A stretch of 64,000 nucleotides of DNA, taken from positions 28,220 to 92,219 of the forward strand of contig JBDRKE010000005.1 of the NCBI GenBank assembly GCA_043814315.1, given 5' to 3'. A program made the translations under genes and the position numbers. Under the pieces are notes generated by a model. It had not been told where the DNA came from and did no database searches. It was given only the letters and a program-made list of their open reading frames with translations. Numbering within the stretch: position 1 is the first letter of the stretch; every line of letters begins with the position of its first letter. This DNA comes from Candidatus Omnitrophota bacterium (GTDB lineage: Bacteria > Omnitrophota > Gorgyraeia > Gygaellales > Profunditerraquicolaceae). This document shows, piece after piece, positions 1-32,619 of this stretch.

Positions 1-3000
1 TACAAAACATTATGCCCTATTTCATGAAATAGTACCTCGAAGAGCAATTTTATGTCTTTGGCATCTTTTATTTCTTTGAGAAAATCCTTCCCTGCCTTGT
101 ATCCGCTGCTCATTCCTCCTCGATATTGGTCTATTATCTGTCCTTCTTCTCTAGCTAATCGAGCCAAGCCTAACTGAATATCTGTATCAACTCGATTTGC
201 ATTAAGGATATCGCCAATGAGTTTTAAATTTTCTGTATTTTTTAGAAACGGATAGTGTTGTATTGTGATTATGCCGGCAGCCCTAACATAGACCTTAAGA
301 ACAAACAGAGAAAACTGATTATCGCTCAGCAAGAGGTCTACCAAATCGAGAGAAGTATTATCCAATAGCTCCTTTGCAAGAGGGTATACTATTGCAAGAC
401 CTTCCTTCCTGGTTTCTTTAGATTGAATATCAAATTTGTAATAGAAGTGAGTATAGATGAAATCGATAAACCTCTTGTAAGCTTTATTATTTCCCATCTC
501 CGGCAAGACTTTATCTATTATCTGTTCTATCGCTTCTTTTACCAGCTGTTCTTTAGTTTCATCTTTATCTCTTCTGACCTTATTAACTAAATTCGATAGG
601 AGCCGGATGAGAAAGCTTTCATCTTGAGCTTTGAGGGTTTCTGCGGGTAAGCCGTTTAGAACACCCATTACGTACTCTAGCGAGTTATTTCTGTAAAACT
701 GGGAATAGCTCATTTCATCGATATCAAGTTCTTTTGGCTTCTGCTCCATCGGCGAGCCGGCGGCTCCTATCACCTGCAGCCAATTTTTATCCTGCGGCCC
801 TGTAAAATATCCTCCATATTCTTTTTCTAGATTATTAGTAATTCGTCTCACATGAGCTTTCTGGTCATACGAACCACCAAGCTTTCCAGAGAATCTCGCA
901 TCTGCTGCTTCCCTATCAAAAGGCACTCCGCTAGAACCATAATAAACAAAATCTCTCTTTCCAAATCTAGTCGAACTTATATCAAATCTTCCGGCGATTT
1001 TATCAGTGAATAACCTATCTTCGGAACCGGCATTTGACGGCTCCAAAAGATTATCAATTTTATCCCGGGCTATTCTTTGGATCAAAAGAGTGACGTCATC
1101 TCTGCTTCCTACATAAACGGTGAAGTCTTTTTCTCCTGGGTCTCCTCCAGCAAGCAATTTATATTGGCCTTTATGGTTATTCCAAAGCCATTCGTCTATT
1201 TTAGGATAACTTTCAGGCTGTACCGTTAAGTGCAATTTCCAGCCACCTTTCTTTATATATTCATCATGTGCTGCTCTATCCGTAACTCTGTAACCGGGTT
1301 TGCCAGGCCAAAGTTCATCTTTCTCCTTAACCAAGATTCTTGTTAAAGCATCTATTCCTTCTTGAGCGTCATCTATTGCCTCTTGGATACCTTTAACTTG
1401 TCCTGATGCTTTGCTTAGTAAATTCCAAATCTGCTCTGATTTTTCTCCTATCCTGACAAGCTGCATACACATTACAAATAAAGTAACTACTTTTTCTCTT
1501 TCTTCGGCAACCGAAGCCGTTGTCCACCATGGAGATGCGTGCTGAATCGCTGCTTGGCGAGAAACTCTCCCCTCCTGAAACGTTATATTCCAACGAGATG
1601 GATTTCGGCTTTCTGCAATCTTAAGCGATACGTTTTTCTCTACTATTTTATAAGCATACTCTGTCCCTTTTGCAAGATAGCCACTTATTTGAGAAAGATA
1701 CATATTGGAATCGAGAGGGGAGGGAATGTGAATCGGCGAGCCGGCGGCGCCTTCTGCCTGCTCCATCGGCGAGCCGGCGGATGCCATAAAATATGTTTCG
1801 GTTACTGGGCTGGAAGAGACTGGTTTTACTAATAAATCAAACAAGCCGGTTGTTATCGAAGCATCAGTCTGTCTATATAAACCTGTGTTTATCTTCCCGG
1901 GGACAGAATTCCCGTATAGATCAGAGTAATCAAATTCTGACCGCCCCTGGAACAATTCTATTTTGTATTTCTTATTAACCCCTTGCTGAACCTTGGTTGT
2001 TTGAACAGGCCTGTATAGCGAAGCCACAACAGGAAGGCCTGTCTTTTGCGACACAATATCCAACACCCCATATAGTTCATCGATGCCCTTTGACCCAAAC
2101 TGGCTGCTTTCTTCAACGAAGATGGCCGGCTGCCTAATGCCTTGTTCGTCTTCCAGTATTCTTAATCTTACTATCCTTCTGGTGATAACTCTTCTATTAG
2201 CGTCCAATAAGGCTACGACCTTATTTGTTCCGTTAACCAAATATCCCGTAAGCCCCCTGTTCAAGTCGTTGCCATATGCGCAGCTCTGGCAGGCTGTTGA
2301 GCCGGGGTAATTACCAATATTAAATAAAGTATAAAAGTCCCCGGTAAACTCGGCGGTCAGGCCCTCTTCTAATCGACGCTGAATTGTTTGTTGCCAATTA
2401 CCTATCTTTTCAATCCTTTCTTTGAGATCCTTAAGACCATCTATGTTTTTTAATTCTTCATACAAAGATGTATTTTCTTTTTTAGCTTTTCCCTTGGCTT
2501 CTTTAATTAGGGCTTGCTCTTCCTGAGGAAGGTTTTCGGCTTCAATGTTGATAATCTCATCTATTGTTGCGCCATAGTCGTTACTTGCATATTTCCATTG
2601 TTTAAAATCATTGCCTACCTCTGTTCTTAATGCTTCAAATATATTATTGTAGATTTCCCCATTTTCTGCTCCCGAGATTGTACGTAAGTAAATATCAATT
2701 AACCTATAAATATTCCTTCCCTGGTGGTCTGTCCACTTGAATCTGGAATTATGCGCGGCATATTGTTTTAGTTTTTCCAGAAACTCACCTTCGTTTTCTA
2801 TTGTCTTTATTTGAGTCTTGAACCGCGCAAGTAAAACATCCGCTTCAATCAAGGCTAATTTCTCTGCTAATCCATTTATCTTGCTATCGTTATTTTGTCC
2901 GGTTGACAGCAGATCATCAATTATTGCTTTGCTAAGCTCTCCAAACTCATTGTTTATGTGTTCTGGAAATAGCTTTGCCTGCGCTTTTAAATATGTGTCA

Positions 3001-6000
3001 ATTGCTTTTGAGTATTGCTCCAGATAAAACATTAACTTATCATAGAACTTATCGGAATTGTCTATCTGGGATGGGTCAAATTCGGCGCTGATAGCTTTCA
3101 AAAGTTTAGAGAGCAGCTCGCCTTTTTGGTCGTATGAATATCCCGAGAAAAAAACCAATTGTTCGTACAGTTTATTTTTAAGAGTAGCTAGCTGGTCGCG
3201 AAACCCCTTGTTCGCATTCATGGATGCTATCAATTGCCTTATTGTATTTAAGGAGCCCATTTCCGGGCTTATCCTTAGTAATGCTTCAAAGAAAATATGG
3301 GGCATTTGCACTGCGGGCTTCGGGAGCTCTATCTGTTTAAATAGTTCGGCTATTGTCCTTGTTATGCTCTCCGGATAATAACTTAATTTAGTTGTTGCAT
3401 ATTGTCTGTCCTGATAAAGGCTCCTTAGCTGCTTCCAGGCTTCTTTTTTCTGTTGATTGTCATCCAATAATGTTTTTATTGCTTCTAAATATTGGAAAAT
3501 TAATGTATTTGAAACCAATGTGTCACGGCTGTCTGATAGAAATTTATTGGCAAACACCGCCTTTTTGGGCCCTTCTATCTTTCCAGCACCTTTTAAACTA
3601 TCGATTAATTTTAAGATTACTGAATTGTCTGTGCTCTGGTTGAATAAAATTTTAAGATAGATCCTATTTTTGCTCTCAGAGGGTTGGTACCTATATTGAA
3701 CTGATAACTCCGTAAATAATTCCTCTTTTTGCTGTTCGTTAATTGACAGCATATCCAATGTAATTATTGCGTCTGTCAGGAAGCTCTCTCTTGCTTCTTG
3801 CAATATACTTTCTAACTTGAGCTTTAAAATATCAATCAAATTAAGCTTATTGTCTGAGGCGATATTGTTGAGTTCGGCGAGCTTGTTTGCCTTATCTATT
3901 TCCTGGAGCACGCGTCTCAGCTCGTATGTATTCTTACCCTGAAGTTGCATGGCTTGCGAGATTGGCTCAAGCTCGTCTATTTTCTGCTGCAAAACAAAAA
4001 GGTTTGACAATATCCATTCGATTCTTCTTAAGACAAATTCAGCGTTTGGGTACCCCTGTAATTTTTGTTTAATGTTTCTAGTCATTTCATCCAAGGAGAG
4101 CTTGGGATCATCCCCTATAGTTCTGATAAGCTCCTTGATTTTGTCAATGCTGACATATTCTAGCAATGCATTTAAATCCGGGATCGGAACATAATACTGG
4201 TTTGGTTCATTTCTAAAATATTTATCAAATGTCTCCTTTACTATCCCAATTGTATCTTTCGCTGCAAATAAAACATCAAGTAAGCTGGTTTTTTCGTCCT
4301 CCCCAAGCCTTTTTTCAGCCGGATGAAGCGTAATCTCTCTATTAAGATTATAGGCAATTTCGTTAATCGCTGATTTAAACGAAGGATTAGATAACCTTTC
4401 CAGCGGCTTTTCGCAATTGTTCGCTTTTTCTTTAAGATAGCGCGCAAGTTTAATATTTATCTCAAGCGCCCTTGTAATCATTACACTGGGTGATTGTTTC
4501 AAAAGCTGCGCCTTAAGCTTTACGTCAATTTTATTGTCTTCTAAAACATTTCTCAGGAACCGATGAGTCTTACCTTTAGCATTGATAAATGCGGCATTCA
4601 AGGAGCCGTTGATCATCCCCGGTATCAGAAGAGTAGCTGGTTTCTCTATCGAAGAATAAATGGCTTTTACTCTCTCTATGTCTGAATAAAGCAGAGGGTT
4701 AACCACTTTGAGGATGCTCTCGATTCCATTGAAAAATATCGCTGGCTTTTGATTGAGGTATGAAATAAGCTCGCTAAGCCTGTTGGGTTGAGATTTAACC
4801 GCCTCCAAAAGGCTGCCATTTGAGCTGTTAAGGGCATCGTTCAAGCTGCGATTAAGCAGCTTCTCTATCAAAAAAGCAGGATCATCTAAGAGCCCGAATG
4901 CTCGCGATATCTCTTCGGTATACGGAGCTATCTCTGGATTAAACACCTCGAGTGTTGTTCTTAACGTATTAGTAAAATGTTCTGGTGACTGCCACCAATA
5001 ATTAATAAGCGATTTGCTAAGCGTCGGGTCGGATTGTATTGCCGACAGGATGGTTTTGTTAGTGCAAAAATAGCTAAAATATTTTTCAGTAAATCGCTGT
5101 TTAAGCTCTAGGCCTATCTCTTTGCTTATGAATACATTTTCAATAAATTTAGATATATCCCCACCGGATTCTTTAAAAGCTTTATTTAAAGTGCCGTTGA
5201 CTGTTTCTTCAATGAAAAGAGCGGGGTCTCCCATAGAAGAATATATCCTCTTGACAGCCGGTAAATAAGGAATTAGCTCCTTATTGAATGCTTGGAATAA
5301 TGCTAAATTGGACAGAAATTCAGATTGATTACTGTGTTTTATCAAATATGTTATAAAAATTATGCTAAGCCTGGTATCAAGACGTATTGCGCGCAGCAGA
5401 CCTTCTTTGAATAAATAAATTGGCATTTCAGCTAAAAGATAACTAAGCAGCTGTTCTTTAATGCCGGGGTCTATTTTTTCATTCTTTAAGACTTCTTCGG
5501 AAAACTTATTGATGAATTCTTCTGTCGTGAGTTTGCTTTTGTCCAATTCTGGGCTTCTAAAGATATCATTAAAAACTCCATTAAGAATGGGCTCGATAAG
5601 GAAATCGGGATGCGAAAAATAACGGTAAAGAATTGTTATTTCCGCTACATAATAGGCAAGGGCGGGGTTCAGTTGTTTTAAGATTGCTTCTAGATTTTTT
5701 ACCAAAAACCCCGACTGTTTTGACAAAGATGTTATTATGCCTTTCCGGATATCTTTTTCTTCCTGGGGTGCATTTTCAAAAGCGCCCAGTATCAGTTGGA
5801 ATAAATCAGGTTTATTTGCAATAAGAGTGCCCAGCGCTTTTTTTACTTGGGAATAGATGTTGTAATATTTAGCTACCGCGGCTTTAGTCACCAGTTGTTC
5901 GATAAGCTCCTTTTCTTTACCAGCATAACGCTTAATCAGCCCTTCAGTATTGTTGTCATAGAGAAATAGGTAGAGGGCTACCTCTTCAGAGGCATCGCTA

Positions 6001-8414
6001 AATTTACGTAATTCCTCTATGGCTGCTCTATGGCTAGAATCTCCGACGTCGTAAAATAATGTTTTAATGAGCATACTTTCCAAGGTTATCGCATTAATAT
6101 CACTCTTAGAAATAACCTTAACGAACGCCATTGGAAGCAAGTCTTTATTTTCATCACTTAGCTGCTCTTTTAGCGCCTTAAGCGTTTTTTGCTGTTCTTC
6201 ATTCAGCAAATGCTTTGCAGCCGCATCTCTGATTGTTTCAGAATAACGCTGATAATTTTTTGCATCATCGCCATAGTCTTCATTAATCTCTCCGAGTCTG
6301 TCTTTTCCTTTCGTTATTTCAATTTTTGATTCACTTAAATAAAATTTGTAATTATAGGGGAAATTTTTGGGAGAGGTAAGGTAAATATCAGAATCGTACA
6401 AGGTCACCTGCTCTACTTTTAATTTACCTTCCAGCAAGTTTTTGGCTCGATTGAAATGATATTTCCTGATAAGCTCTTTCCTGTTTGCTATCGTTAAAGA
6501 AAGAGTGACTATAACCGCAATAAGCCCCAGCATGCCGCTTAGCATTTTTGCCATAAGCAGATAATTTTCTTTCTTTTGTGTTTTATGATACTCTGCTTTT
6601 TGTAGAAGCGCATCCTCGATGGCTTGTCTATTTCTAATTTCTCTGCCGTCGTAAACATGCTTCGCATCTACAAACATCGCCCTATGCCTTCCCCAGATAA
6701 AACTGCCCCTCCAATCGGTTTGAAAACCTGCTTTATCATAGAGGTCTTTAACCGGCACTAGATAGACCTTTTCCGAATGTGCCTCATAGAGCGTATATTT
6801 TTCTGCCAGTAGGCTATGGCGTGTTTTTCGCAATGCCTCGTATTCTTTCTCCCCTTCTTCTTTATCCTTCTTGTCTTTGCCTTTGCGCGACTTCTGCCAG
6901 GATTGCTCTTGTTTAATGTATATTTCTTTTAAATCTTGGGGAAGGTTTTCAATTACAAAACTCTCGTAAGCTTCGTAATTTTGAAATTTTCCATATGTTT
7001 TCTTGGCTTTCGTTGTCTCTTCGGAAGCTTGGACTTTTTGAGGATTTATATTGACGGTGGCTAGTGCTGCAACTGTGCCCAGCCCCCACTTAAGAAAACC
7101 CCTGCGGCTGATTTCTTTGTCAACAATACCAGATTGATCTTTGCCTTGCATTGCCGAAGAGGCGGCTTTTTTCTCCATCGGCGAGCCAACAGTTTCTTGT
7201 TTTTCCAGAGGTATATGTTCTATAACTATGTCTCCTATCTCTGAGGGGCTGCCTATGTCTCCACCTTTAAACGAAATACCGATTATCCTCTCACTATATA
7301 GCGGAGGTTCTGGCCTGGCGGGACTGCCGGCTATAGTTCCGTTCTTGATAGCTCCCATTATCCCCCCTTCGCCTCCAGCTAATGGACTAAACGCAATCCC
7401 CCCTGAAAAATAACTCCTTATGGTCTGGCCAAAGGGAGTAGAAACTGGAACCTTCAGGTCGTACTCCCCCTCTTTGAAGGATCTCTGGTACTCTTTAAAA
7501 TACGTGCTCTTTGACCAAGGCGTCTTTGAAGTCAGGCCGTTGAGGTTACCTTTATCAATAAGATAGGAATAGAGGCCACCCTTGCCATAGAGCCTGGCCT
7601 TAAACCACTGGGCTAAGATTAAAGAGTAGTAAACCTGTCTTAGGGGAGCGTACCTTTTGGCGATGTTAACGTCTTTGGTTAATTTGGGGATAATGGATTC
7701 GCGAATAAGTTCGGATGCGTATTCATTAAGCTCTTTTAGCCGCGGGTCATCAAAGTTGTAAACAGCTGAGCCCTTCAAATAATCCTGCTCCAGCATGACT
7801 TTAAGGGTGGCCTTGTAAATATAGGCATTGTCCTGTGACTCCCGGATAATAATCTCACCCGGCACAATCCAGGGCCTGGTTAAGGTAGGAATCGTGATAT
7901 TACTTGTGCCAAAAAGCTCCTCTGCCTTTTGATAAAGCTTCTCCCAATAAACCTTGCCTTCGGGTGTTTGCGGCGAAGTGAACTTAGCCGTGTCTTTCTT
8001 AAGCTGCAGGTCTGCCTCCAGGAGGATTTTACCCGCATCCGTCCTGGCTAAGGCGTCGTCAATGACCTGGTCTTCTGAGTCAGGCCGAAGATTCACCCAG
8101 AAGCTGTCATTGGGAAGATTTATTCCCACAAAGAAATAGTTAAGCAGGGTGCGCGTTGAAACTTCAACATCTTGCTCTTTAATATTTTTTAAGTCTCCCC
8201 TGTCCAGGAGGAGCTTGAAATTATTATTGAGATTATCGTAGGAAAGGTAGCGTAAATGCAGGGGCCGAAATTTATCCGGGATGAAGGAACTACGCAGCTG
8301 CGCGATATGGCCTGAGATATCCAATTGCCCGGCAACCTGGGCAAAACCCGATTGCTCAAAGACAAAACAGAAACAAAGCAGAAGTGAAAAAAACCTTAGA
8401 ATCTTCTTCGACAT
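1..8414 (-). CDS. Giant secreted or membrane-associated protein, at least 2804 codons, C-terminus beyond window start
   Basis: Minus-strand frame starts at ATG 8414 (MSKKILRFFSLLLCFCFVFEQSGFAQ, a Sec-type signal peptide) and stays open to position 3. The ORF track lists no complete minus-strand ORF of at least 60 aa in this frame over 8.4 kb, consistent with one open frame reaching the edge. Hand translation shows an internal SRRGFLKWGLGTVAALATV segment near aa 430, a TM-like segment near aa 620, a long helical low-complexity region, and an HEIGH (HExxH) motif at nt 12-26. Confidence 0.8.
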   Translation of the reverse strand, partial: MSKKILRFFSLLLCFCFVFEQSGFAQVAGQLDISGHIAQLRSSFIPDKFRPLHLRYLSYDNLNNNFKLLLDRGDLKNIKEQDVEVSTRTLLNYFFVGINLPNDSFWVNLRPDSEDQVIDDALARTDAGKILLEADLQLKKDTAKFTSPQTPEGKVYWEKLYQKAEELFGTSNITIPTLTRPWIVPGEIIIRESQDNAYIYKATLKVMLEQDYLKGSAVYNFDDPRLKELNEYASELIRESIIPKLTKDVNIAKRYAPLRQVYYSLILAQWFKARLYGKGGLYSYLIDKGNLNGLTSKTPWSKSTYFKEYQRSFKEGEYDLKVPVSTPFGQTIRSYFSGGIAFSPLAGGEGGIMGAIKNGTIAGSPARPEPPLYSERIIGISFKGGDIGSPSEIGDIVIEHIPLEKQETVGSPMEKKAASSAMQGKDQSGIVDKEISRRGFLKWGLGTVAALATVNINPQKVQASEETTKAKKTYGKFQNYEAYESFVIENLPQDLKEIYIKQEQSWQKSRKGKDKKDKEEGEKEYEALRKTRHSLLAEKYTLYEAHSEKVYLVPVKDLYDKAGFQTDWRGSFIWGRHRAMFVDAKHVYDGREIRNRQAIEDALLQKAEYHKTQKKENYLLMAKMLSGMLGLIAVIVTLSLTIANRKELIRKYHFNRAKNLLEGKLKVEQVTLYDSDIYLTSPKNFPYNYKFYLSESKIEITKGKDRLGEINEDYGDDAKNYQRYSETIRDAAAKHLLNEEQQKTLKALKEQLSDENKDLLPMAFVKVISKSDINAITLESMLIKTLFYDVGDSSHRAAIEELRKFSDASEEVALYLFLYDNNTEGLIKRYAGKEKELIEQLVTKAAVAKYYNIYSQVKKALGTLIANKPDLFQLILGAFENAPQEEKDIRKGIITSLSKQSGFLVKNLEAILKQLNPALAYYVAEITILYRYFSHPDFLIEPILNGVFNDIFRSPELDKSKLTTEEFINKFSEEVLKNEKIDPGIKEQLLSYLLAEMPIYLFKEGLLRAIRLDTRLSIIFITYLIKHSNQSEFLSNLALFQAFNKELIPYLPAVKRIYSSMGDPALFIEETVNGTLNKAFKESGGDISKFIENVFISKEIGLELKQRFTEKYFSYFCTNKTILSAIQSDPTLSKSLINYWWQSPEHFTNTLRTTLEVFNPEIAPYTEEISRAFGLLDDPAFLIEKLLNRSLNDALNSSNGSLLEAVKSQPNRLSELISYLNQKPAIFFNGIESILKVVNPLLYSDIERVKAIYSSIEKPATLLIPGMINGSLNAAFINAKGKTHRFLRNVLEDNKIDVKLKAQLLKQSPSVMITRALEINIKLARYLKEKANNCEKPLERLSNPSFKSAINEIAYNLNREITLHPAEKRLGEDEKTSLLDVLFAAKDTIGIVKETFDKYFRNEPNQYYVPIPDLNALLEYVSIDKIKELIRTIGDDPKLSLDEMTRNIKQKLQGYPNAEFVLRRIEWILSNLFVLQQKIDELEPISQAMQLQGKNTYELRRVLQEIDKANKLAELNNIASDNKLNLIDILKLKLESILQEARESFLTDAIITLDMLSINEQQKEELFTELSVQYRYQPSESKNRIYLKILFNQSTDNSVILKLIDSLKGAGKIEGPKKAVFANKFLSDSRDTLVSNTLIFQYLEAIKTLLDDNQQKKEAWKQLRSLYQDRQYATTKLSYYPESITRTIAELFKQIELPKPAVQMPHIFFEALLRISPEMGSLNTIRQLIASMNANKGFRDQLATLKNKLYEQLVFFSGYSYDQKGELLSKLLKAISAEFDPSQIDNSDKFYDKLMFYLEQYSKAIDTYLKAQAKLFPEHINNEFGELSKAIIDDLLSTGQNNDSKINGLAEKLALIEADVLLARFKTQIKTIENEGEFLEKLKQYAAHNSRFKWTDHQGRNIYRLIDIYLRTISGAENGEIYNNIFEALRTEVGNDFKQWKYASNDYGATIDEIINIEAENLPQEEQALIKEAKGKAKKENTSLYEELKNIDGLKDLKERIEKIGNWQQTIQRRLEEGLTAEFTGDFYTLFNIGNYPGSTACQSCAYGNDLNRGLTGYLVNGTNKVVALLDANRRVITRRIVRLRILEDEQGIRQPAIFVEESSQFGSKGIDELYGVLDIVSQKTGLPVVASLYRPVQTTKVQQGVNKKYKIELFQGRSEFDYSDLYGNSVPGKINTGLYRQTDASITTGLFDLLVKPVSSSPVTETYFMASAGSPMEQAEGAAGSPIHIPSPLDSNMYLSQISGYLAKGTEYAYKIVEKNVSLKIAESRNPSRWNITFQEGRVSRQAAIQHASPWWTTASVAEEREKVVTLFVMCMQLVRIGEKSEQIWNLLSKASGQVKGIQEAIDDAQEGIDALTRILVKEKDELWPGKPGYRVTDRAAHDEYIKKGGWKLHLTVQPESYPKIDEWLWNNHKGQYKLLAGGDPGEKDFTVYVGSRDDVTLLIQRIARDKIDNLLEPSNAGSEDRLFTDKIAGRFDISSTRFGKRDFVYYGSSGVPFDREAADARFSGKLGGSYDQKAHVRRITNNLEKEYGGYFTGPQDKNWLQVIGAAGSPMEQKPKELDIDEMSYSQFYRNNSLEYVMGVLNGLPAETLKAQDESFLIRLLSNLVNKVRRDKDETKEQLVKEAIEQIIDKVLPEMGNNKAYKRFIDFIYTHFYYKFDIQSKETRKEGLAIVYPLAKELLDNTSLDLVDLLLSDNQFSLFVLKVYVRAAGIITIQHYPFLKNTENLKLIGDILNANRVDTDIQLGLARLAREEGQIIDQYRGGMSSGYKAGKDFLKEIKDAKDIKLLFEVLFHEIGHNVL

Positions 8415-8574
8415 ACTTTGATTAGGTGGAGATTGCGGTCTATCAGCCTTATTGCTTTAAGTTTACTATATAGGTAAGGAATTTCAAGGTTTATATGGGG
8501 ATTTTAGGAAAGCGCTTTCAAGCCTTAAGGATTCTTTAAGGTGGGGTCGTGGTGCTGGGTTGTTTCAGCAAGAC

Positions 8575-8811
8575 CTATTTCTTCACCCATTTCATAAATT
8601 CTAACTTCTTCCAGCAGGCTTCACAGAAATCCAGGTCTGCATAGTTAACCCAAGATTCCTTTCTTGTTTCCTTGGTCCTAAAATTCTTGCCTTTATAAAC
8701 CACTAATCTACTAAAAGAAGCGCCTGGGACAGTGTAGTCAATTTCACCAATTGAATAATAAGGCTCTTTTTCTAATATCTTTTTGCAGCTATCGCATTTT
8801 CTAGTAGTCAT
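8575..8811 (-). CDS. Small zinc-ribbon protein with two CxxC pairs
   Basis: 78 aa with CDSC...CEAC. Overlaps the HEPN gene stop by 11 nt, so probably co-transcribed. Confidence 0.5.
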   Translation of the reverse strand: MTTRKCDSCKKILEKEPYYSIGEIDYTVPGASFSRLVVYKGKNFRTKETRKESWVNYADLDFCEACWKKLEFMKWVKK

Positions 8812-9253
8812 GATTTTCTCCTTGCTCTTTTAAAAGTATCTGTTTTGCGGCCTTGAGGAACCTCTTTGCGCTTTCGATAACCGCCTGAGCCCCTTCCTGG
8901 GAAAATTTTCGTCGGTAATCAGCGTCTTCTCGCAGGATCATAGAATTGTTGAAATCTTCGGCTAACTTAGGGTCTAATTTCTTCTCCCGGACAAAAAAGG
9001 CCCTTATCGCAAGGTAAAGACAGTAATGGCCCTTTTCGCGGTAGCCACGAGAATAAAGTAATGCCCTGGCAGAATGAAACATAGAGTAGTAACCTTTGAT
9101 GGTAGCCCATTTAAAGTTTCCTTGATCATAATCTTCCTCAGCTGATTTAAGGTCTTCTTTAGCATCTTCGAGTTCAAGGCTCACCAATTGCCTTGCTGGT
9201 TCAAAAGGAAAGATTTTCTTTTTTTCAATGCACTCTTTAAAGGATAGCTTCAT
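8801..9253 (-). CDS. HEPN domain protein, toxin of a HEPN/MNT pair
   Basis: 150 aa, helical, with an Rx6H-type motif (RGYREKGH). Overlaps the upstream MNT gene by 17 nt. Confidence 0.6.
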   Translation of the reverse strand: MKLSFKECIEKKKIFPFEPARQLVSLELEDAKEDLKSAEEDYDQGNFKWATIKGYYSMFHSARALLYSRGYREKGHYCLYLAIRAFFVREKKLDPKLAEDFNNSMILREDADYRRKFSQEGAQAVIESAKRFLKAAKQILLKEQGENHDY

Positions 9254-9803
9254 TTATCTCCCTTTCCCAAAGGACCTTGCCCTTTTCTACCTGCTCAAGA
9301 AACACCTTGCCTTGCCTATCTCTTTTTAAAAGCTCCTCTGGACTGTTTATGATCGGCTGTATCTTGCGTTTGTAGAGTTTAGTAGAATAGGAGAATTTAT
9401 TGGCTAGGAACAGCACCTTTTCTTTTTCAGAGCTAACAATAAAGAGGTCAATGTCGCTATCTTCGACATCATTCCCTTGAGCCCAGCTGCCAAAGAGGAC
9501 TATTTTGTAACTTAACCTTTTGAGCTTCTCTACTAAAGGCTCAATCAAGAGTAGATTAGCAAGAATCTTGAATTCTTTAAGATAAGGATCGGCCTTATTA
9601 ATAGAATAGAAATACATCCGGCCATTTTGCTTGCGGTTGATAAGGCTAGCTCGATACAGACGAACTAAGGTGTAGTGGGTCGAACTCGGACTTAAGCCTA
9701 TCTTTCGACTAATCTCTCTCTCATAGAAAGACTGACTCGGATTAAGAACGAAGAATCTTAAAATCTTCTGATAATTAGTGGAAATAAGATATGTGTTAAT
9801 CAT
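9237..9803 (-). CDS. Minimal nucleotidyltransferase (MNT) with N-terminal winged-helix domain, antitoxin partner of HEPN
   Basis: GSWAQGNDVEDSDIDLFIV matches the GSx9-13DxD nucleotidyltransferase signature. The N-terminal 70 aa are wHTH-like. Confidence 0.7.
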   Translation of the reverse strand: MINTYLISTNYQKILRFFVLNPSQSFYEREISRKIGLSPSSTHYTLVRLYRASLINRKQNGRMYFYSINKADPYLKEFKILANLLLIEPLVEKLKRLSYKIVLFGSWAQGNDVEDSDIDLFIVSSEKEKVLFLANKFSYSTKLYKRKIQPIINSPEELLKRDRQGKVFLEQVEKGKVLWEREINEAIL

Positions 9804-12523: not shown

Positions 12524-14005
12524 TTACTTTAATCTAAAAATTAATCCCAGGCCGTCTTCCGCCATTACTTCAAATCGAGGATCAGGCCTGATCTGATGAA
12601 TCAACCCCGAAAAATAATTCTTTCCCACGTAGCCGTAGCGCGTGTCAAACTCATCCCGGAGCGCCGCATAAGGATCAGGACTCCTTCCAAAGGCAATATC
12701 CCGATACAGATTATATTTCTTAGAATTCCAGTAATACATGTAAATAGGGTCAAGCGTCACAAAATAGTCGTTTTGAGGATTGACGCCGATTAAGTATTGG
12801 GAATCAGACCAGTTGGAATGAAAAATCGTCTCCCCTGCCGGAATATTTTGCGCCATCCATGCCCCTACCGCCTGGAAGTGCCCGTTGTAAACCGCTTCTA
12901 CCTGGGCAAGCTTAGAAAAAGCGCGATAGGTGCGCGCCCCCATCAAGGCTAACAGCAAGACAACTCCTATCCCTAAACTCCACCTTAACCCCCTGCTTCT
13001 CTTCAACGCAGGCAGGCGCCCTTCCCCTTGCCACCAGTCAGACACATAAGAAGCCAGCGCAATTAATATTAGGGGATAGCCGTGGGTAATGTAGCGCTGA
13101 GAAAAAAATGAAAACACAAAGAAAAAGGCGGCAACAGACATCCAGATGGCTGTTGAGGGCCTCACCTTACTTTTCTGGCTCGCCCCTAAGGATATGAAAA
13201 GAATCACTGCGATGATAATAAAAGGGTGCTCCAGGATATAGTCCCTCGTGCTGATGGGGAAAAACTCTGCTCCCAGCTCCAGGCCCCATTTCAGCGCAAA
13301 GACGGGCACCAGAATGCCATTTAAATAAAAGATGAGCAGATTGTTAGGAAAGTTGGGGTGTATTAAAAATCCCAATACAAGACCGAGGGCAACCGCCCGT
13401 AAAGAACGCCAGTAAAATTCTTTGCTGTTAGCAAAGCGCGCCGATTCCGCGAGCACCGCAAACACAAGCAGATAAGGGCTGGAAACATGGCTGAGCGCGT
13501 AAACAACCGTAATAATAAATAGCGCTACTTGCTTTTTCAGTATTAAAAAATGGATGAAGAGCAGGGTGAGCCCCATGACCAGAACCATGTTTCTGGCCTG
13601 GCTTATAGCCTGCACAAATGGAGCCGAACACAAGAACATGAACAAAAAAACAGGAATTAGGTTTTTTGTCGGACAGTAGCGCCTGAGCATCCAAAAATAC
13701 ACCAGATACAAAAAAACAGTCCACAGGCAGGCACTTATCTTGCCTGCCATAATCATATTGGGCAAAAGAGTGAAAGGGATAAGCGCTACGTGATAGAGAA
13801 GGTCTTTATCGGCGAAGTTTTTGGCAAAGGTAGAGTAGCGGGCCCAGTGGAAATCGTATCTTAGGCCCTTTTCGCGGATGAACTGGGCCATGCGCATATG
13901 CAGATACCCGTCTGCTCCGAAAAGCGTAGCAATCGAAAACTGCGCAACGACCAAAACAGCGATGCTTAACAAAAGAACGGCGGTGAGCGTTATTTTATAT
14001 GGCAT
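12524..14005 (-). CDS. Polytopic membrane protein, GT-C fold glycosyltransferase-like (GT39/GT83 ArnT/PMT-like)
   Basis: 493 aa with many hydrophobic helices. The N-terminal loop FADKDLLYH is an acidic motif typical of GT-C enzymes. Confidence 0.4.
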   Translation of the reverse strand: MPYKITLTAVLLLSIAVLVVAQFSIATLFGADGYLHMRMAQFIREKGLRYDFHWARYSTFAKNFADKDLLYHVALIPFTLLPNMIMAGKISACLWTVFLYLVYFWMLRRYCPTKNLIPVFLFMFLCSAPFVQAISQARNMVLVMGLTLLFIHFLILKKQVALFIITVVYALSHVSSPYLLVFAVLAESARFANSKEFYWRSLRAVALGLVLGFLIHPNFPNNLLIFYLNGILVPVFALKWGLELGAEFFPISTRDYILEHPFIIIAVILFISLGASQKSKVRPSTAIWMSVAAFFFVFSFFSQRYITHGYPLILIALASYVSDWWQGEGRLPALKRSRGLRWSLGIGVVLLLALMGARTYRAFSKLAQVEAVYNGHFQAVGAWMAQNIPAGETIFHSNWSDSQYLIGVNPQNDYFVTLDPIYMYYWNSKKYNLYRDIAFGRSPDPYAALRDEFDTRYGYVGKNYFSGLIHQIRPDPRFEVMAEDGLGLIFRLK

Positions 14006-14013
14006 ATATTTAA

Positions 14014-14088
14014 TGACCCCGACGGGATTTGAACCCGTGTCGAGAGCTTGAAAAGCTCTTGTCCTAGACCGGGCTAGACGACGGGGTC
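14014..14088 (-). tRNA. tRNA-Glu (anticodon TTC)
   Basis: Cloverleaf read by hand: acceptor GACCCCG/CGGGGTC, anticodon loop TTTTCAA, T-loop TTCAAAT. Confidence 0.85.
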
Positions 14089-14091
14089 ATA

Positions 14092-17000
14092 TTATTCTTC
14101 TTCTATAATGACGGGGGCCACGCAGGAAACCCGGTCTTTAGGCTGCAACCTGATAAGGCGCACCCCCTGCGCAGACCTGCCGGTGGTGCGGATATCTTTT
14201 ATGGCGCAGCGCAGGAAAATGCCGTTTTGCGTAATGGCCATCAACTCGTCATTATCGCCAACCGACTTAAGGCTGATCGCTTCACCATTTTTCGCGGTCA
14301 CCTTCATATTAATAACGCCCTTGCCTCCCCTGCTGGTGAGACGGTACTCTTTGATGGGCGAGCGCTTGGCAAAACCTAATTCTGTCACGGTTAAAACGGT
14401 AGAGTCTTTTTGGGGGACCACCATACCGATCACTTCATCCTTCTTGGCCAAAGAAATGGCGCGCACGCCGTGCGCCCCCCTTCCCATGTCCCGCACCTTG
14501 CTTTCTGAGAATCTCAAGGCCTTGCCCTGACGCGTGCCAATGAGCAGCTCCTGTTTTCCGTCGGTCAACTCGACACCGATCAACTCGTCATTCTTATCCA
14601 AAGTGATTCCGATAATGCCGGCCTTGCGCGGGTTGCCGTAGGCGTCCAGTTTCGTCTTTTTGATCTGGCCGAGTTTCGTCACCATCACCAGGTACTTGTC
14701 CTCGGAAAATTCCTTTACGGGGATAGTCTTGCTTATTTTAACGCCTGGCTCCATCTGCACCAGATTCACAATGGCCTTTCCTTTAGTGGTGCGGCTAGAC
14801 TGGGGGATCTCGTAAACCTTAAGCCAGTGCACCTGGCCTTTGTCCGTAAAAATCAAAAGGTAGTCTCGGGTTGAGGCGATAAACAGATGCTCCACGAAAT
14901 CCTCTTCTTTAACCTCCGCGCCCGTCACGCCTGATCCGCCGCGCCTCTGTTTGCGGTAGGCACTGACCGGCAAACGCTTGATGTAGCCACCGTGGCTGAT
15001 GGTGACAACCACGTCCTCTTCGGCGATTAAATCTTCTATCTCCAGCTCTTCTACCTCAGCCACGATATCGGTCCTGCGATCATCTGCGTATTGCTTTTTT
15101 AGGCCCTCCAGTTCCTCCTTGATGATGCCTTCGATTTTTTTCTCGGAGGCAAGGATCGCCTTGCAGAGCTCTATCTTCTTAAGGAGCTCGGCGTATTCAG
15201 CGTCAATCTTGTCCCTCTCAAGGGCGGTTAGGCGCTGCAGCTGCATCTCCAAGATCGCCTGCGCCTGAATCTCGGAAAGGCCAAACTCCTTCATCAAGCG
15301 CTCTTTAGCCGCTTCAACGCTCTTAGAGGCTTTAATCACCTTAATGATCCTATCAATAAATTTCAAGGCGATCTTTAAGCCCTCTAAAATATGGGCGCGC
15401 TTTAAGGCCTTGTCCAGCTCAAACTGGGTGCGCCTGCGGACAATCACCTTGCGATGCTCAACATAAGCATCCAGCACCTGCTTTAAATTCAAAACCCGCG
15501 GCCGGTTTTCCACCAGAGCGAGCATGATCACGCCAAACGTTGTTTTAAGCTGCGTGTGCTTAAAGAGTTGGTTCAAGACAATCTGCGATTCGGCATCCCG
15601 CTTAAGCTCGACGACCACGCGCATACCTTCCTTGTCAGACTCATCTCGAATATCAGAAATGCCCTCGATCTTCTTCTCATCCACCAGGCCTGCTATGGCC
15701 TCGATGAGGCCTGCCTTTTGAACCTGATAAGGGATCTCTGTAATCACGATAAAGTCCTTGCCGTTTTTCTGATGCTCAACGGTTGCCCGGGCACGCACCG
15801 TAAGCTTGCCCTTGCCTGTGGTGTAGGCATCCTTGATGCCGGCTTTCCCGCAGATGACTCCCCCCGTCGGAAAATCAGGGCCCTTGATATAGCGCATCAG
15901 GTCTTTGAGTTCTGCCTCAGGATGGTCCAGCAGATAAATGATGGCATCCGCCACTTCCTTCAAGTTGTGCGGCGGGATATTAGTAGCCATGCCTACGGCA
16001 ATACCGCTTGAGCCGTTCACTAATAAATTGGGAAGAGCCGCAGGCAATAAAAGGGGTTCTTGCAGGGAGGCATCAAAGTTCGGGCCGAAATTTACAGTAT
16101 CCTTGTCAATATCAGCCAGCATCTCGTCGGAGATTGCAGCGAGCCGCGCCTCCGTGTTATGGCTTATAAAGCCATTTGACACAAAGGAGTGACAAGGACT
16201 ATCAACTTTTATTGAATAAACCCTCTGCTTGCCAGAATCTTCAACAAAAGCAACTCTATCAAATATGTACTTATTTTCCCTCAAGGTCTCAAATAACCCT
16301 AGGTCTTCTTTATCAAGAGCTCTGGTTAGTCTCGGCCAATACTTCTCTATTTTTACATATCTGTCGATATTGTGTTTCTTAAGCCATTCTATGTGTCCAC
16401 GGTATTTTTTGTTGCACCTACTACTTTTTCTGCGGATATAATCAGCTATAAAGGGTATAAAATCCGTTTTCGACATATTCCATCCATCGCTGTTGCGATT
16501 ACAGATATTTGTTATCTTCTGGCGGCTTTCCTTTGTGCTAAAATTTATTTCATTTTTGAATAGCCCGAGGTTGACGTGCCCCCTAATATACAATCTAAAA
16601 TAGCGTTTCTGTTTATGAAACCTGAGCCAAGAATCAATCCCAAATCTTAATAGTAAAATCTGTAATTCTTGGAGCAATTTTTCACTGGTTGATATAAAAC
16701 TAATATCGGGATTTCTTTTACCAATACAAACGCTGCCATCTCCTTCCGCATATCCTTTTATAAATGAGCTTACCGATTTTCGTGAAGATTTAAAAATGAT
16801 AGGGGGCACCTTTTTCTTTTGAGCACGAGACTGTAGCAGACCGATATTTTTTAAAAATTCCCTAACTTGGCTTGAATGAATTTCCAAGTAAACACAGTTC
16901 TTTTTACCGAAACCAGGCGGCTTCCTCACGAATTCATGCAGTCGGCAATCAGGAAATACTTTTTTAAAGCTTAGCTTAAATTTATCTATAAACTCTTTAT

Positions 17001-17844
17001 CGCCATTGCAGAAATCAATGTGCTTTTTGCTTATAGACCCCTCCGCAATTATTGCCCCCAAAATAAAAGCGAGGTCTTTATTCATGGCACGAGGGAGCCT
17101 GTGCTTCTGCGCCCGATTTTTAATCTCTGGATAATATTGTTTTAGCGAAAGCTCTTCTTTAGGAAATAATACACTGCTCCTACTTATCACAGTACAGTCA
17201 CCAATTTTTACCTGGCTTAATAATTTCCAGACAAATTTTGGCTTGAAACTATTTCTCTCCCATACAAGAATGGGATGATTAAGGCTGCCGCATAAACTAA
17301 AACCTCTAAAAGTGGTAATTTTCTTAGTTGGGTGCTCTCCAGAATCAAACCACCTTGATACATGATTTATTTTATTATTTAGAGAGAGCGTGTGAAAATT
17401 GGCTTTTGAATGATGGGATATATCATTTATTCTTTGCAGCCCTTGCTCCGTAATAATGAAAGTGTCCCCCGAGACGCAGTAGCGCATCGCGGCAGCGGCG
17501 TCCCCGTCGATTGATCCAAAATTTCCTTGGCCCTCTACCAGTGGATAACGCAAAGAAAAATCCTGCGCCATGCGCACTAAGGTATCATAGACTGCTACAT
17601 CTCCGTGAGGGTGATATCGGCCAAGCGTATCTCCAACGATGCGCGCGCATTTTTTATAAGGCTTATCATGCTCGAGATTCAAATCTTTCATCGCAAATAA
17701 GATTCTGCGATGCACCGGCTTTAAGCCGTCGCGCACATCCGGAAGGGCGCGGCCTACAATTACGCTCATGGCGTAATTTAGATATGAGTCCTTTACCTCT
17801 TCTTCAATATAAACAGGAATTATTTTTTCGTTGCGGGTATACAT
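14092..17844 (-). CDS. gyrA: DNA gyrase subunit A containing a 441-aa intein
   Basis: N-terminus has the AAAMRY active-site Tyr followed directly by Cys. The extein resumes as ...HN|[13 protein letters not shown]. Extein length 809 aa. Confidence 0.95.
16156..17478 (-). mobile_element. GyrA intein with LAGLIDADG homing endonuclease domain
   Basis: Starts with Cys immediately after the catalytic Tyr (MRY|C) and ends in HN before Thr. Two LAGLIDADG-like motifs: [15 protein letters not shown] and [12 protein letters not shown]. Confidence 0.85.
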
Positions 17845-18010: not shown

Positions 18011-22047
<4,037 letters not shown>

Positions 22048-23139
22048 TTAACTGAGCCGCATAGGCAAAACAATATAAACGTAGCCGTCGCTACGTATCA
22101 CCCCGGGCTGCTCGCTGTCTGTCAACTCAAGACTTATCTTATCGTCGGTGAGATTTTTTAAAACATCTATCAGGTAGTTGGGGTTAAACCCTATAACCAT
22201 CTCTTTCCCCTGATAATCTACAGGCACTTCTTCCCGTGACTCACCCACATCAGGAGTCGATTTAGAAAGAACAAGCTTGTTTTTAAAAACCTCCAACTTG
22301 ACAGCTTGGTAGTCTGGCGTGGAAAGCAAGGAGGCTCTTTTGACAGCTAATAAAAACTCGGTTCGCTCCGCTTTTAAAAGATTATCCGACGCCGGGGGAA
22401 TAACTTGCCGGTAATCCGGAAACTCTCCCTCAATAAGACGCGAAATAATAATAATATCCCCCAGGTCAAACATGGCCTGGTTTGTGCCGAGCACAAGTGA
22501 TAGCTCTCCTTGATCCTGGAGGTTACGATTTAACTCATGAATGGTTTTAATGGGCACAATAATATAAATATCTTTATCTATATTATGGTTTAGCTTTTTT
22601 TCTATAATAGCAAGCCTCTTACCGTCCGTAGCCACTAGAGAAAAAATATTTTTATTAATTTTAAATAGTATTCCATTTAAAATATAGCGTGTTTCATCAA
22701 AAGATACCGCGAAAGAAGTGAGATTTAACATTTGCTTGAGTAGGGATTGCTCAAGCTTAATAACCTCTTGATCTTTAAATTCTGGGAGTTTAGGAAACTC
22801 CTCTTTTCCTAACCCCATTATTTTAAACTGGCAAGACTTAACATCAATCGTCACTAGGTTGTTCTTTTTTGTGGTAACATCAATATTATCAGAAGGTAAC
22901 TCCCTGATAATATCTCCAAATCTTTTGGCGGGCACTGTAATGGACCCTGGCTCTTGGATATCCACAGGCACCACACAGCTTATTCCTATATCTAAATCCG
23001 TAGCGGTTAACTTTAACCCATTAGATTGAGCTTCTAATAAAACATTAGAAAGTATTGGTAAGGCTGCTTTTGTAGTAATAACGTTTTGCACGGTTTGTAT
23101 GCCGCTCAATAAAATATCTTTTTGTACTTTGAATTTCAT
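22048..23139 (-). CDS. dnaN: DNA polymerase III beta sliding clamp
   Basis: MKFKVQKDILLSGIQTVQNV...; 363 aa; dnaA-dnaN synteny. Confidence 0.95.
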   Translation of the reverse strand: MKFKVQKDILLSGIQTVQNVITTKAALPILSNVLLEAQSNGLKLTATDLDIGISCVVPVDIQEPGSITVPAKRFGDIIRELPSDNIDVTTKKNNLVTIDVKSCQFKIMGLGKEEFPKLPEFKDQEVIKLEQSLLKQMLNLTSFAVSFDETRYILNGILFKINKNIFSLVATDGKRLAIIEKKLNHNIDKDIYIIVPIKTIHELNRNLQDQGELSLVLGTNQAMFDLGDIIIISRLIEGEFPDYRQVIPPASDNLLKAERTEFLLAVKRASLLSTPDYQAVKLEVFKNKLVLSKSTPDVGESREEVPVDYQGKEMVIGFNPNYLIDVLKNLTDDKISLELTDSEQPGVIRSDGYVYIVLPMRLS

Positions 23140-23271: not shown

Positions 23272-24615
23272 TTATTGTTTAATAATTTGAATAACATGCT
23301 CTACTTTTTGTTTTAAGGCCTCATTCGTATTCAAGCCCCCCTTGATTTTATTATAAGAGTGTAAGACGGTCGTGTGATCTTTTCCCCCAAAATGGTCTCC
23401 TATCTCAGGCAAAGACAGCTCTGTCAACTCTCTGCTTAAATACATCGCAACCTGGCGCGGGAGAACAATGTTTTTGTGGCGGCGCTTGGTCTTAAGCTCA
23501 TGCAGTGATACCCCGAATTCTTCAGACACGCAACGCTGTATAAAATCTACCGTGATAAGCCTCTTGGGTTCTTTTAACAAGTCCTTTAAAACCTCTTTGG
23601 CCAGGCCCAACGTGATGGGCTCTTCTTCTAGTAAAGAATAGGCGATGGTGCGGATCAGCGCCCCCTCTAACTCCCTAACATTTGTTTTAATGAGTTGGGC
23701 GATGAAAAAAATCACTTCATCCGGAACGGTTACAGGCTCTCTTTCAATCTTTTTCTTTAAAATAGCCACGCGCGTTTCTAAATCAGGCGGCTGGATATCT
23801 GTGGTGAGCCCCCAACCAAAGCGCGAGACAAGCCTATCTTGCAAATTGGCAATTTCCTTAGGGGGTCGGTCAGAGGAAAAAACAATCTGTTTATGGGAGT
23901 CGTAAAGCGTATTAAAGGTATGGAAGAACTCTTCTTGGGTTGACTCTTTCCCTGCGATGAAATGGATATCGTCTATCATCAGGACATCCACATTTCTGTA
24001 TTTTTGCCGGAAGCGAGAAGTCGAATGATGCTGGATGGCGTCGATGAGTTCATTAGTAAATTTTTCCGACGATAGGTAGCAAATTTTAGGGTTGCCCGTA
24101 GATTTGCTGAGTATAAGGTTACAGATAGCCTGGATAAGATGGGTCTTGCCCAGGCCCACCCCCCCGTAAATAAATAAAGGATTGTACGCTTTAGCAGGAG
24201 AATCGGCAACCGCTAAAGAGTAAGCGTGAGCATGCCGGTTAGACGAACCCACAACAAAATTTTCGAACGTATAGCGCGCATTCAGGCTGGAGGTGTCGTG
24301 ATGCCCGGCAGCCTTGATGGTCAGGCCCGCCGGATTTAATGGGTCGCGCACTTCCCGTTTCTCTTTGATGCCGGATTCAAAAGATACGGCGATTTCTTGC
24401 TGGGAAGATACATGGCTCAGCGCCTGCTGGATGATGAGGCTATAATGTTTCTCGACCCACTCTCGAAAGAAATCATCCGGGGCCTCTAGAACTAAACCGT
24501 TCTTATTTTTTGTGCGCGGCGTTAAGGGCAAAATCCAGGTTTCAAAAACCGTATCCCCTAACCGTTCTTTTAAGAACCCATGTGCCTGCTGCCAGGCTTG
24601 GAGAATATCAGCCAT
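23272..24615 (-). CDS. dnaA: Chromosomal replication initiator DnaA
   Basis: AAA+ domain with GGVGLGKTHL Walker A, C-terminal DNA-binding domain, 447 aa. Confidence 0.95.
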   Translation of the reverse strand: MADILQAWQQAHGFLKERLGDTVFETWILPLTPRTKNKNGLVLEAPDDFFREWVEKHYSLIIQQALSHVSSQQEIAVSFESGIKEKREVRDPLNPAGLTIKAAGHHDTSSLNARYTFENFVVGSSNRHAHAYSLAVADSPAKAYNPLFIYGGVGLGKTHLIQAICNLILSKSTGNPKICYLSSEKFTNELIDAIQHHSTSRFRQKYRNVDVLMIDDIHFIAGKESTQEEFFHTFNTLYDSHKQIVFSSDRPPKEIANLQDRLVSRFGWGLTTDIQPPDLETRVAILKKKIEREPVTVPDEVIFFIAQLIKTNVRELEGALIRTIAYSLLEEEPITLGLAKEVLKDLLKEPKRLITVDFIQRCVSEEFGVSLHELKTKRRHKNIVLPRQVAMYLSRELTELSLPEIGDHFGGKDHTTVLHSYNKIKGGLNTNEALKQKVEHVIQIIKQ

Positions 24616-32254: not shown

Positions 32255-32327
32255 GGCGTGGTACCCAAGTGGTCAAGGGAGTTGTCTGCAAAACAACTAT
32301 TCACCGGTTCGAGTCCGGTCCACGCCT
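32255..32327 (+). tRNA. tRNA-Cys (anticodon GCA)
   Basis: Acceptor GGCGTGG/CCACGCC, anticodon loop CTGCAAA, T-loop TTCGAGT, discriminator U. Confidence 0.85.
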
Positions 32328-32459
32328 TAAATTTTGCGTAGCAAAATTTACTCCTCGCGATACATCAAGTTTTTATTTAGGTTTGAGCGAGGAGCTAAGA
32401 ATGCGCAGCACCGCGCAGCGCGCGGTGTAATTCGCTGACAAGAAATAGCGGGCGAATTA

Positions 32460-32542
32460 GGGCAAGTGGTGGAATGGCTTACACGATGGACTTAAAATCC
32501 ATTGGCCGCAAGGTCGTGAGGGTTCGACTCCCTCCTTGCCCA
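32460..32542 (+). tRNA. tRNA-Leu (anticodon TAA), type II with long variable arm
   Basis: Acceptor GGGCAAG/CTTGCCC, anticodon loop CTTAAAA, long variable arm, T-loop TTCGACT. Confidence 0.85.
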
Positions 32543-32619
32543 TGAAATTTTGCAAGGCAAAATTTCATCCCGAGCAGCGACAGGGAAACATATAGGCTGC
32601 GAGGGATTACCTTTTTTGC

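Follow-up and report, generated by a model that had tools for sequence, protein, structure and literature searches.

MARTX proteins are giant secreted toxins with conserved ends and a variable effector array that recombines between strains and whose unstructured linkers are cleaved, which sets the single modules free. In CdiA and Rhs proteins a short motif (VENN in the former and PxxxxDPxGL in the latter) lies at the border between the constant and the variable part, is conserved at the level of the DNA and acts as the recombination joint for module swaps. The Omnitrophota, a widespread group of ultra-small and probably host-dependent bacteria, possess exceptional giant genes. Here we describe a short junction motif in one such gene, P0001, which occupies the beginning of a 64,000-nucleotide stretch of DNA (the window) on contig JBDRKE010000005.1 of a Candidatus Omnitrophota bacterium, and in the protein family to which P0001 belongs. 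We find that the motif very probably serves as the module delimiter of that family, and we consider processing of the giant proteins at the motif to be the leading, if tentative, explanation for it. Two preprints (Nielsen & Lui 2026; West-Roberts et al. 2023) describe Omnitrophota giants of at least 10,000-30,000 amino acids (aa) as 'multi-enzyme metabolic clusters'. The second of these asks whether such proteins are cleaved and names the absence of known cleavage points as what blocked analysis; in neither is there any mention of a motif for junctions, linkers or cleavage, or of the terminal domains described below.

The junction motif and its protein family

The open reading frame (ORF) at the start of the window comprises the first 2804 codons of P0001 (3..8414, minus strand, with the ATG start at 8414) and runs out of the window. 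The complete protein of 4210 aa is entered at NCBI as MFH1457641.1, 'hypothetical protein ABIG31_00515, Candidatus Omnitrophota bacterium', from a 97-kb contig. The initial annotation had pointed to four copies of a motif in this ORF that are conserved at the nucleotide level, and it was correct as to their positions and their peptides. The 18-mer GCCGGCTCGCCGATGGAG occurs exactly at 1761-1778(-) (copy 2, AGSPME) and at 744-761(-) (copy 4, AGSPME), and with 16 of its 18 nucleotides (nt) at 7173-7190(-) (copy 1, VGSPME, GTTGGCTCGCCGATGGAG), on the border between the N-terminal domain and the first cargo block. Copy 3, at 1728-1745(-), encodes AGSPIH, matches at 14 of 18 positions, the first 14 nt being identical (GCCGGCTCGCCGAT, followed by TCAC), and forms a doublet with copy 2, 11 codons away. 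GGCTCGCCGAT is common to all four copies, which are spaced by 984, 33 and 5412 nt, lie in frame in a single stop-free minus-strand frame (8456..3) and specify the peptides VGSPMEK, AGSPMEQAEGAAGSPIH and GAAGSPMEQ. No match to GCCGGCTCGCCGATGGAG arose in 100 dinucleotide-preserving shuffles (mean 0.00). Copies 3 and 4 form the left and right arms of a 17-nt direct repeat, GCCGCCGGCTCGCCGAT (at about 1745 and at 761), that flanks 984 nt, equivalent to 328 codons.

Two weaker sites were found in the same ORF, AGSPA at aa 362-366 (7317..7331(-)), in the linker past the N-terminal domain, and SSSPV at aa 2200-2204 (1803..1817(-)), and P0001 has further sites beyond the window start at aa 3055, 3065, 3639 and 4035. 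Its total of 10 sites compares with an expectation of 0.16 and a maximum of 3 in 2000 shuffles; within the window, the giant ORF has six sites while the other long frames, some 18,400 aa in total, have two. A Chi-like genome-wide 8-mer was ruled out, the 8-mer being absent from the rest of the window (five of its five copies there lie inside the giant ORF).

P0001 is matched by more than 500 database proteins, with lengths of 1,500-4,900 aa, and they share its N-terminal domain (N-domain). Almost all of the matches are confined to aa 1 to ~400 (55-79% identity) and to the last ~150 aa; the middle of P0001 is matched block by block, with few proteins to each block. Among the matches listed, the N-domain is covered in 119 of 119 and the C-terminal domain (C-domain) in about 109-110 of 119. 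A scan of species-representative genomes with the N-domain alignment yielded 415 loci, all in Omnitrophota-type metagenome-assembled genomes and often with several paralogues in one genome. N-domain and C-domain stand in one frame in 41 of 45 complete ORFs. The N-domain of ~320-340 aa has the hallmark motifs FWVNLRPD, IPTLTRPWIVP and RSYFSGG; in P0001 it takes up aa 27-342 (7389..8336(-); 56-79% identity among members) and follows an N-terminal Sec-type signal peptide, MSKKILRFFSLLLCFCFVFEQSGFAQ (8337..8414(-)), which by sequence reading and family alignment is kept family-wide, and the whole of 7389-8414(-) is 56-79% identical to 15 family members. The C-domain is helical, starts with GGIDxR, aligns with 16 members and lies beyond the window, at aa 4066-4210. 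Both domains are without a model in Pfam or NCBIfam, and AlphaFold2 models of the two (pLDDT 63.6 and 73.4) matched no solved fold. Candidates for stand-alone C-domain proteins were ruled out as contig fragments or a frameshifted family gene. P0001 belongs to an unnamed family of modular Omnitrophota giants and has the signal with the N-domain, the C-domain and the junction-punctuated variable middle by which it is defined. This N-domain/C-domain family, with more than 400 loci, is newly defined here and was previously unannotated; its layout, like beads on a string, is a Sec signal, the N-domain, a variable chain of cargo modules joined by short low-complexity linkers and the helical C-domain, in one reading frame.

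The cargo modules are complete enzymes or secreted or membrane proteins, some of them with signal peptides of their own. Pfam domains in the cargo of relatives include methyltransferases, HATPase_c, GNAT, metallophosphoesterases, UbiB kinases and M48 peptidases. Glycolysis and the pentose-phosphate pathway are represented too, by whole enzymes (FBA, TIM, PGK, GAPDH, enolase, transaldolase, transketolase and PGM/PMM). At four loci (L013, L017, L072 and L093) the family gene is broken by an in-frame stop or a frameshift, never at a junction motif; either the assemblies are wrong there or the genes are decaying. An ABC exporter gene (ABC_membrane and ABC_tran; L001, 10754-12559) lies directly downstream of the family gene P0079, an arrangement not seen at the other loci inspected.

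The initial annotation missed the copies outside the window, the membership of the gene in a large family with conserved ends, and the spread of the motif beyond this gene: AGSPME is the local variant of a family-wide delimiter, [A/S/G/V]-[S/G/A]-S-P-[V/L/I/A/M], or A-S-S-P-V in short. A count of 4-mers, which finds motifs without a prior pattern, gave ASSP (41-fold), SSPV (38-fold), SSSP (22-fold) and AGSP (16-fold) as the most enriched in the variable middles of 120 members. The 120 proteins contain 444 strict sites, compared with 15 in shuffles (about 30-fold), with up to 24 junctions in one protein, and 91 of the 120 have at least one looser [ASGV][SGA]SP site. The density per 1000 aa is 1.51 in family ORFs and 0.09 in the other ORFs of the same loci. 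With this 17-fold difference, the objection that the motif is a generic repeat fails. In the motif logo, where S-P is set by the search pattern and the two preceding positions are likewise constrained by it, the position before S-P is S, G or A, the one before that is mostly A or S, and the flanks are rich in Ser, Ala, Gly and Pro. The residue after S-P is V, L, I, A or M in ~90% of sites across genomes (Ala in 16%). Other members repeat their own forms (ASSPAP five times, GAASPV five times and ASSPVE three times, for example). There are no genome-specific flavours: paralogues of one genome mix AGSP, ASSP and SSSP. A LapG-type dialanine site, for which the AAG in P0001 had made a candidate, was discarded, the consensus of the family being other than dialanine.

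The sites lie at module borders, as had been proposed for the four copies in P0001. Homology blocks of P0001 (1260-2204, 2371-2544, 3044-3572 and 3667-3819) terminate at motif sites, and across the 120 proteins a motif lies no more than 30 aa from 29-31% of BLAST block ends, compared with 11% of random positions, the distances forming a sharp peak at ±10 aa. The first motif usually comes after the N-domain, and 47 of 105 proteins have one no more than 30 aa ahead of the C-domain (for example SSSPLKKGGIDMR). Pfam enzymes start 10-25 aa past a motif, and one enolase has a motif on both sides. The distribution of gaps between motifs is bimodal, with 5-16 aa in doublets and 100-500 aa for modules.

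The modules also occur as separate genes, which the initial annotation had put forward as a test by comparison of homologues. The stand-alone protein P0124, of 1852 aa, is colinear with aa 434-2206 of P0001 and 54% identical to it over 982 aa. The alignment ends exactly at the junction KPVSSSPVTE, where P0124 reads KPMNTKTEQE (MNTKT in place of the SSSPV site). P0124 has no N-domain, no C-domain and no junction motif, and the gene upstream of it does not encode an N-domain protein. The C-terminal half of the block between copies 3 and 4 (block B) is homologous to P0121 and P0122, two separately encoded proteins of 214 and 221 aa, and to aa 419-595 of P0022. The motif is therefore family-wide, family-specific and situated at module borders, and the stand-alone homologues of modules do not have it.

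Readings of the junction motif

We favour the reading that the motif is a delimiter at which the giant proteins are also processed by an endoprotease, making them bacterial polyproteins, and we give it a probability of roughly 0.45. The motif would be a short linear recognition site, and the giant precursor would be cut there by an endoprotease acting in trans, so that the modules are freed; the outcome would be a chromosomally encoded bacterial polyprotein. Several features argue for this. An invariant Ser-Pro followed by an aliphatic residue, set in variable linkers, resembles a recognition site, and the motif flanks complete proteins, often as doublets. Proline at P2 with an aliphatic residue at P1 (a cut after V in S-P-V) is the preference of serine proteases of the subtilisin and elastase types, which such a site would suit. 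One ORF encodes several proteins that are found elsewhere as separate genes, with a short motif at their borders. Sec- and Tat-type signals, which need a free N-terminus, come after the motif and not before it, and an exported N-domain that is followed by a twin-arginine (RR) signal would be topologically awkward in an uncut chain.

The signal-like segments merit closer description. The initial annotation had read a Tat signal peptide directly after the first copy, and this stands in part. The segment (SRRGFLKWGLGTVAALATV, running to VQA before SE) has the S/T-R-R-x-F-L-K consensus, a hydrophobic h-region and an A-x-A-like end, and as aa 434-460 of P0001 (SRRGFLKWGLGTVAALATVNINPQKVQA, 7035..7115(-)) it is conserved in the homologous modules of P0006, P0007 and P0124. 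It scores 20.2 bits (E 5.6e-4) with the Pfam model TAT_signal (PF10518), and the scores of 20.2 and 19.5 bits obtained with this model do not reach its gathering cut-off of 22.7 bits, so that 'Tat-like' is a fair description and a formal match is not. It begins at ORF residue 434 and would be N-terminal only if the chain were cut at aa 409-413. Inside family proteins there are 13 Tat-like segments of the S/T-R-R-x-F-L-K type, most of them 5-30 aa past a motif. Hydrophobic segments resembling signal peptides were found in 5.6% of 55-aa windows downstream of motifs, 0.5% of those upstream and 1.3% of random ones.

The recombination that would have built such polyproteins may have left its own traces. 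The extra nucleotide identity over 14-21 nt between the junctions of this gene, and the 17-nt repeats around block B, could be the footprint of recombination or duplication from junction to junction, which would be a route of module gain and shuffling; direct repeats of 17 nt around a module of 984 nt are compatible with recombination at the junctions.

A number of observations weigh against processing and the recombination associated with it. The strict motif is missing from 29 of the 120 members, roughly a quarter, and many long stretches with several enzymes contain no motif. The RR segment of P0124 lies at residue 63, behind another hydrophobic N-terminus; it too is internal, and the Tat-like segments could therefore be mere membrane helices. 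No protease family was recognised in the conserved domains by Pfam, NCBIfam or fold matching, and a trans-acting enzyme was not searched for; M48-type peptidase modules occur in few members only, and the HExxH of P0001 is not universal. Homogenisation of the copies is clear only in some genes (P0001 and P0079), and family-wide the codon identity is 0.35 within genes and 0.31 between them. Stretches of 12-17 nt are too short for ordinary RecA-dependent exchange.

A reading that we consider doubtful, although the same absence of a protease from the conserved domains and the internal RR segment of P0124 speak for it, is that the chain stays uncut and forms a membrane-anchored multi-enzyme scaffold. 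The motif would then be a linker or hinge, with Ser-Pro as a helix N-cap or rigid turn, and the signal-like segments would be ordinary transmembrane (TM) helices. The single ORF is strongly kept (the 41 of 45 given above), a signal peptide (SP) and many TM helices are predicted by DeepTMHMM in larger Omnitrophota giants (bioRxiv 10.64898/2026.06.07.730766), and the S-P-M-E form of P0001 fits a capping box. However, Glu occupies position N3 in just 14% of sites, and passive linkers are not normally conserved, whereas in this family S-P never varies and ~90% of the residues that follow it are aliphatic, amid variable flanks. In an uncut chain, moreover, positive-inside topology clashes with an exported N-domain followed by an RR signal, and signal-like segments are 10-fold commoner downstream than upstream of the junctions.

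We regard it as unlikely that the motif acts primarily in the DNA, as a GC-rich joint (GCC-NSY-TCG-CCG) for in-frame exchange of cassettes among paralogues, with the peptide incidental. What recommends this reading is a motif-specific codon bias, GCC-xxx-TCG-CCG, that is present on top of the conservation of amino acids. The motif Ser is encoded by TCG in 44% of cases, compared with 10% in the background, 15% in other SP dipeptides, 13-17% for conserved serines of the N-domain and 13% in the flanks of the linkers. For Pro, CCG accounts for 54% (29-34% elsewhere), for Ala GCC for 54% (26%) and for Gly GGC for 55% (30%), and 35 of 53 genes use TCG at a motif Ser at least once where 15.7 were expected. 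GC-rich linker composition was ruled out as the cause, the flank codons being at background, and the comparison codons likewise rule out a codon preference of conserved sites or of SP dipeptides; the bias is restricted to the motif core. The commonest core 12-mer, GCCGGCTCGCCG, occurs at 14 sites in eight genes of different genomes, nearly all on the coding strand, the copies in P0001 and P0079 are near-identical over 14-21 nt, and block B has its 17-nt direct repeats. Modules are shuffled among paralogues, of which a genome may have several, with their borders at motifs. Against a role in the DNA, most copies vary in nucleotides yet keep the peptide: the motif Ser codons are both TCN and AGY (16% AGY; TCG, TCT, TCA and AGC all occur), and orthologous junctions differ synonymously, which points to selection on the amino acids. 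Codon identity within genes is nearly equal to that between genes, the 8-mer of P0001 is not genome-wide and no recombinase is linked to the locus. The 12-mer GCCGSCTCGCCG was also seen once on the minus strand in each of L011, L080 and L083, outside or antisense to the family gene.

Modification of the linker Ser in A-x-S-P-Φ by O-glycosylation or phosphorylation, serving for example in linker protection or partner docking, seems improbable to us. A short motif with an invariant Ser in low-complexity linkers rich in Ser, Ala and Pro would accommodate it, as would the Sec signal, with which the protein may lie outside the cell. It leaves unexplained the placement at module borders, the doublets, the downstream signal peptides and the codon bias, and the locus has no linked gene for a glycosyltransferase or a kinase.

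Separation of the modules during translation is very improbable. It would proceed from internal starts at the ATG or GTG after Ser-Pro, as was suggested initially for P0001, or by a 2A-like stop-go event at the Ser-Pro bond. An ATG directly follows Ser-Pro in three of the P0001 copies, P0079 favours GTG, the TCG-CCG bias could mean a tRNA-dependent pause, and signal peptides lie downstream of the junctions. Family-wide, however, there is no preference for a start codon after Ser-Pro (GTG in 23% against 19% in the background, with Ala at 16% of sites) and no Shine-Dalgarno sequence at a working distance, and internal initiation was rejected. A structured RNA or recoding element was rejected likewise, local folding at the junctions being insignificant (z +0.5 to +1.6) and Rfam giving no match. 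The motif does not conform to the 2A consensus D(V/I)ExNPG-P, no NPGP appears in its logo, and 2A peptides are not known to function with bacterial ribosomes. A dual-coded variant, to which we attach just as little likelihood, would have the ribosome release the module between S and P of A-x-S-P-Φ, by way of TCG-CCG, and continue without a stop codon. If true, a stop-less 'operon' would yield separate proteins, each using its own Sec or Tat signal, and a single mechanism would cover the peptide conservation, the codon bias, the single frame and the downstream signal peptides.

Chance or a generic genomic repeat is refuted by the absence of shuffle matches, the in-frame position of all copies in one ORF and the 17-fold density relative to neighbours, even though an exact 21-mer has seven matches in JGI metagenomes, since these lie in unrelated proteins on high-GC soil contigs (58-73% GC), include no strain variant of the giant gene and are therefore chance matches.

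The giant gene and its neighbourhood

The sites divide the part of P0001 within the window into three cargo blocks. Block A (1818..7172(-), aa ~415-2199) has no internal junction motif and is the part that is colinear with P0124. Between 4500 and 5400(-) (aa ~1018-1307) it contains diverged internal repeats of ~190 aa, a region that has two BLAST alignments, mutually offset in register, to P0006, P0009 and P0071. Block B (762..1727(-), ~325 aa) has as homologues the P0121, P0122 and P0022 segments already given. Its C-terminal half (762-1300(-), GGWKLHLTV…GGDPGEKDFTVYVG…NAGSED) is a small domain of unassigned function, which may bear some likeness to the motifs of OspF/SpvC-type lyases. The 214-aa relative of this half (L091, 6001-6645) is encoded on a virus-like contig together with a PolB with an intein, an SNF2 helicase and MT-A70. 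Block C starts at 743 (3..743(-)) and continues past the window to the junction at aa 3055. It contains HEIGH, an HExxH zinc-protease-like motif, at 12-26(-), and this block (aa ~2558-3054) has no Pfam match and no homologue among the 120 listed relatives. Pfam searches with the 2804 aa in the window (E up to 1) and with the full protein (E up to 0.1) returned only sub-threshold TAT_signal, Trns_repr_metal and APP1_cat, NCBIfam added nothing for the whole protein, and a PDB sequence search with the giant protein gave no match.

P0001 is placed near the replication origin, in the order dnaA-dnaN-gyrB-gyrA-x-glmS-TP_methylase-giant. This order is conserved at three other loci (L002, L003 and L093) for this orthologue only, the other paralogues lying elsewhere. 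In the window, dnaA (23272-24615(-)), dnaN (22048-23139(-)) and yidC (25404-26927(+)) flank a sign change of the GC skew at ~25 kb, which is likely to be the origin itself, some 15 kb from the giant gene. The gyrA and gyrB genes (14092-17844(-) and 18011-21763(-)) encode 1250 aa each, each with an intein (Pfam Intein_splicing), and that of gyrA also has a LAGLIDADG homing-endonuclease domain. Between gyrA and glmS lies an ORF of 493 aa (12524-14005(-)) with no Pfam match and a 494-aa counterpart at the same place in L093, which makes it a conserved gene without an assigned family. A pair resembling MNT-HEPN toxin-antitoxin genes (8801-9253(-) and 9237-9803(-)) separates the TP_methylase gene from the giant gene, and no such pair occurs at the equivalent place in the three syntenic loci. 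The window further contains a 6S RNA and four tRNA genes (43634-43793(+); 32255-32694(+); 14014-14088(-)); three of the tRNA genes are clustered and one is directly downstream of gyrA.

Significance and comparison with known systems

The delimiter supplies the first concrete candidate cut sites for the giant proteins of the Omnitrophota. It predicts the exact ends of mature products, and it allows the giants to be split in silico for structure prediction. If processing does occur, the polyprotein would place complete enzymes, glycolytic ones among them, in a row behind a single export signal, an unusual means of co-expressing or delivering a set of enzymes, and the delimiter might be used in synthetic polyproteins. 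If it does not, the motif is still a marker of the grammar of module shuffling in these genes.

The giants described in the preprints are from the same phylum and resemble the present family in cargo (the Pfam domains methyltransferase, HATPase_c, GNAT, HAD, PGM/PMM and ROK) and in the prediction of an SP plus TM helices, but they are larger than its members, which have 1,400-4,900 aa. The segment in P0001 shares with Tat signal peptides the consensus, the h-region and the A-x-A-like end, and differs in its internal position at residue 434. As in the MARTX toxins of the Vibrio RtxA1 family, conserved N- and C-termini are combined with variable, shuffled modules and linkers. In contrast to those toxins, Pfam finds neither RTX or glycine-rich repeats nor a C80 cysteine protease domain in P0001, and where the built-in protease of MARTX cuts after Leu, the Omnitrophota delimiter is A-x-S-P-Φ. 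The Omnitrophota giants also have a Sec signal rather than the architecture of a type I secretion system (T1SS) substrate, and their cargo includes housekeeping-type enzymes (TPI, FBA, PGK, GAPDH, enolase and transketolase). With viral polyproteins, such as those with picornavirus 3C or flavivirus signalase sites, they have in common a single ORF, motifs at the borders and internal signal peptides; unlike those, the family is chromosomal, lies near oriC, encodes no protease that was recognised and has putative cleavage sites. The likeness to CdiA VENN and Rhs consists in a short conserved peptide at a module border, but those proteins have one border, with a toxin/immunity pair at it, whereas here there are up to 24 borders, enzyme cargo and no immunity genes. 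The family is closest in its logic to MARTX and to viral polyproteins and, at the joint, to the demarcation motifs of polymorphic toxins (VENN and Rhs), and it belongs to none of the three.

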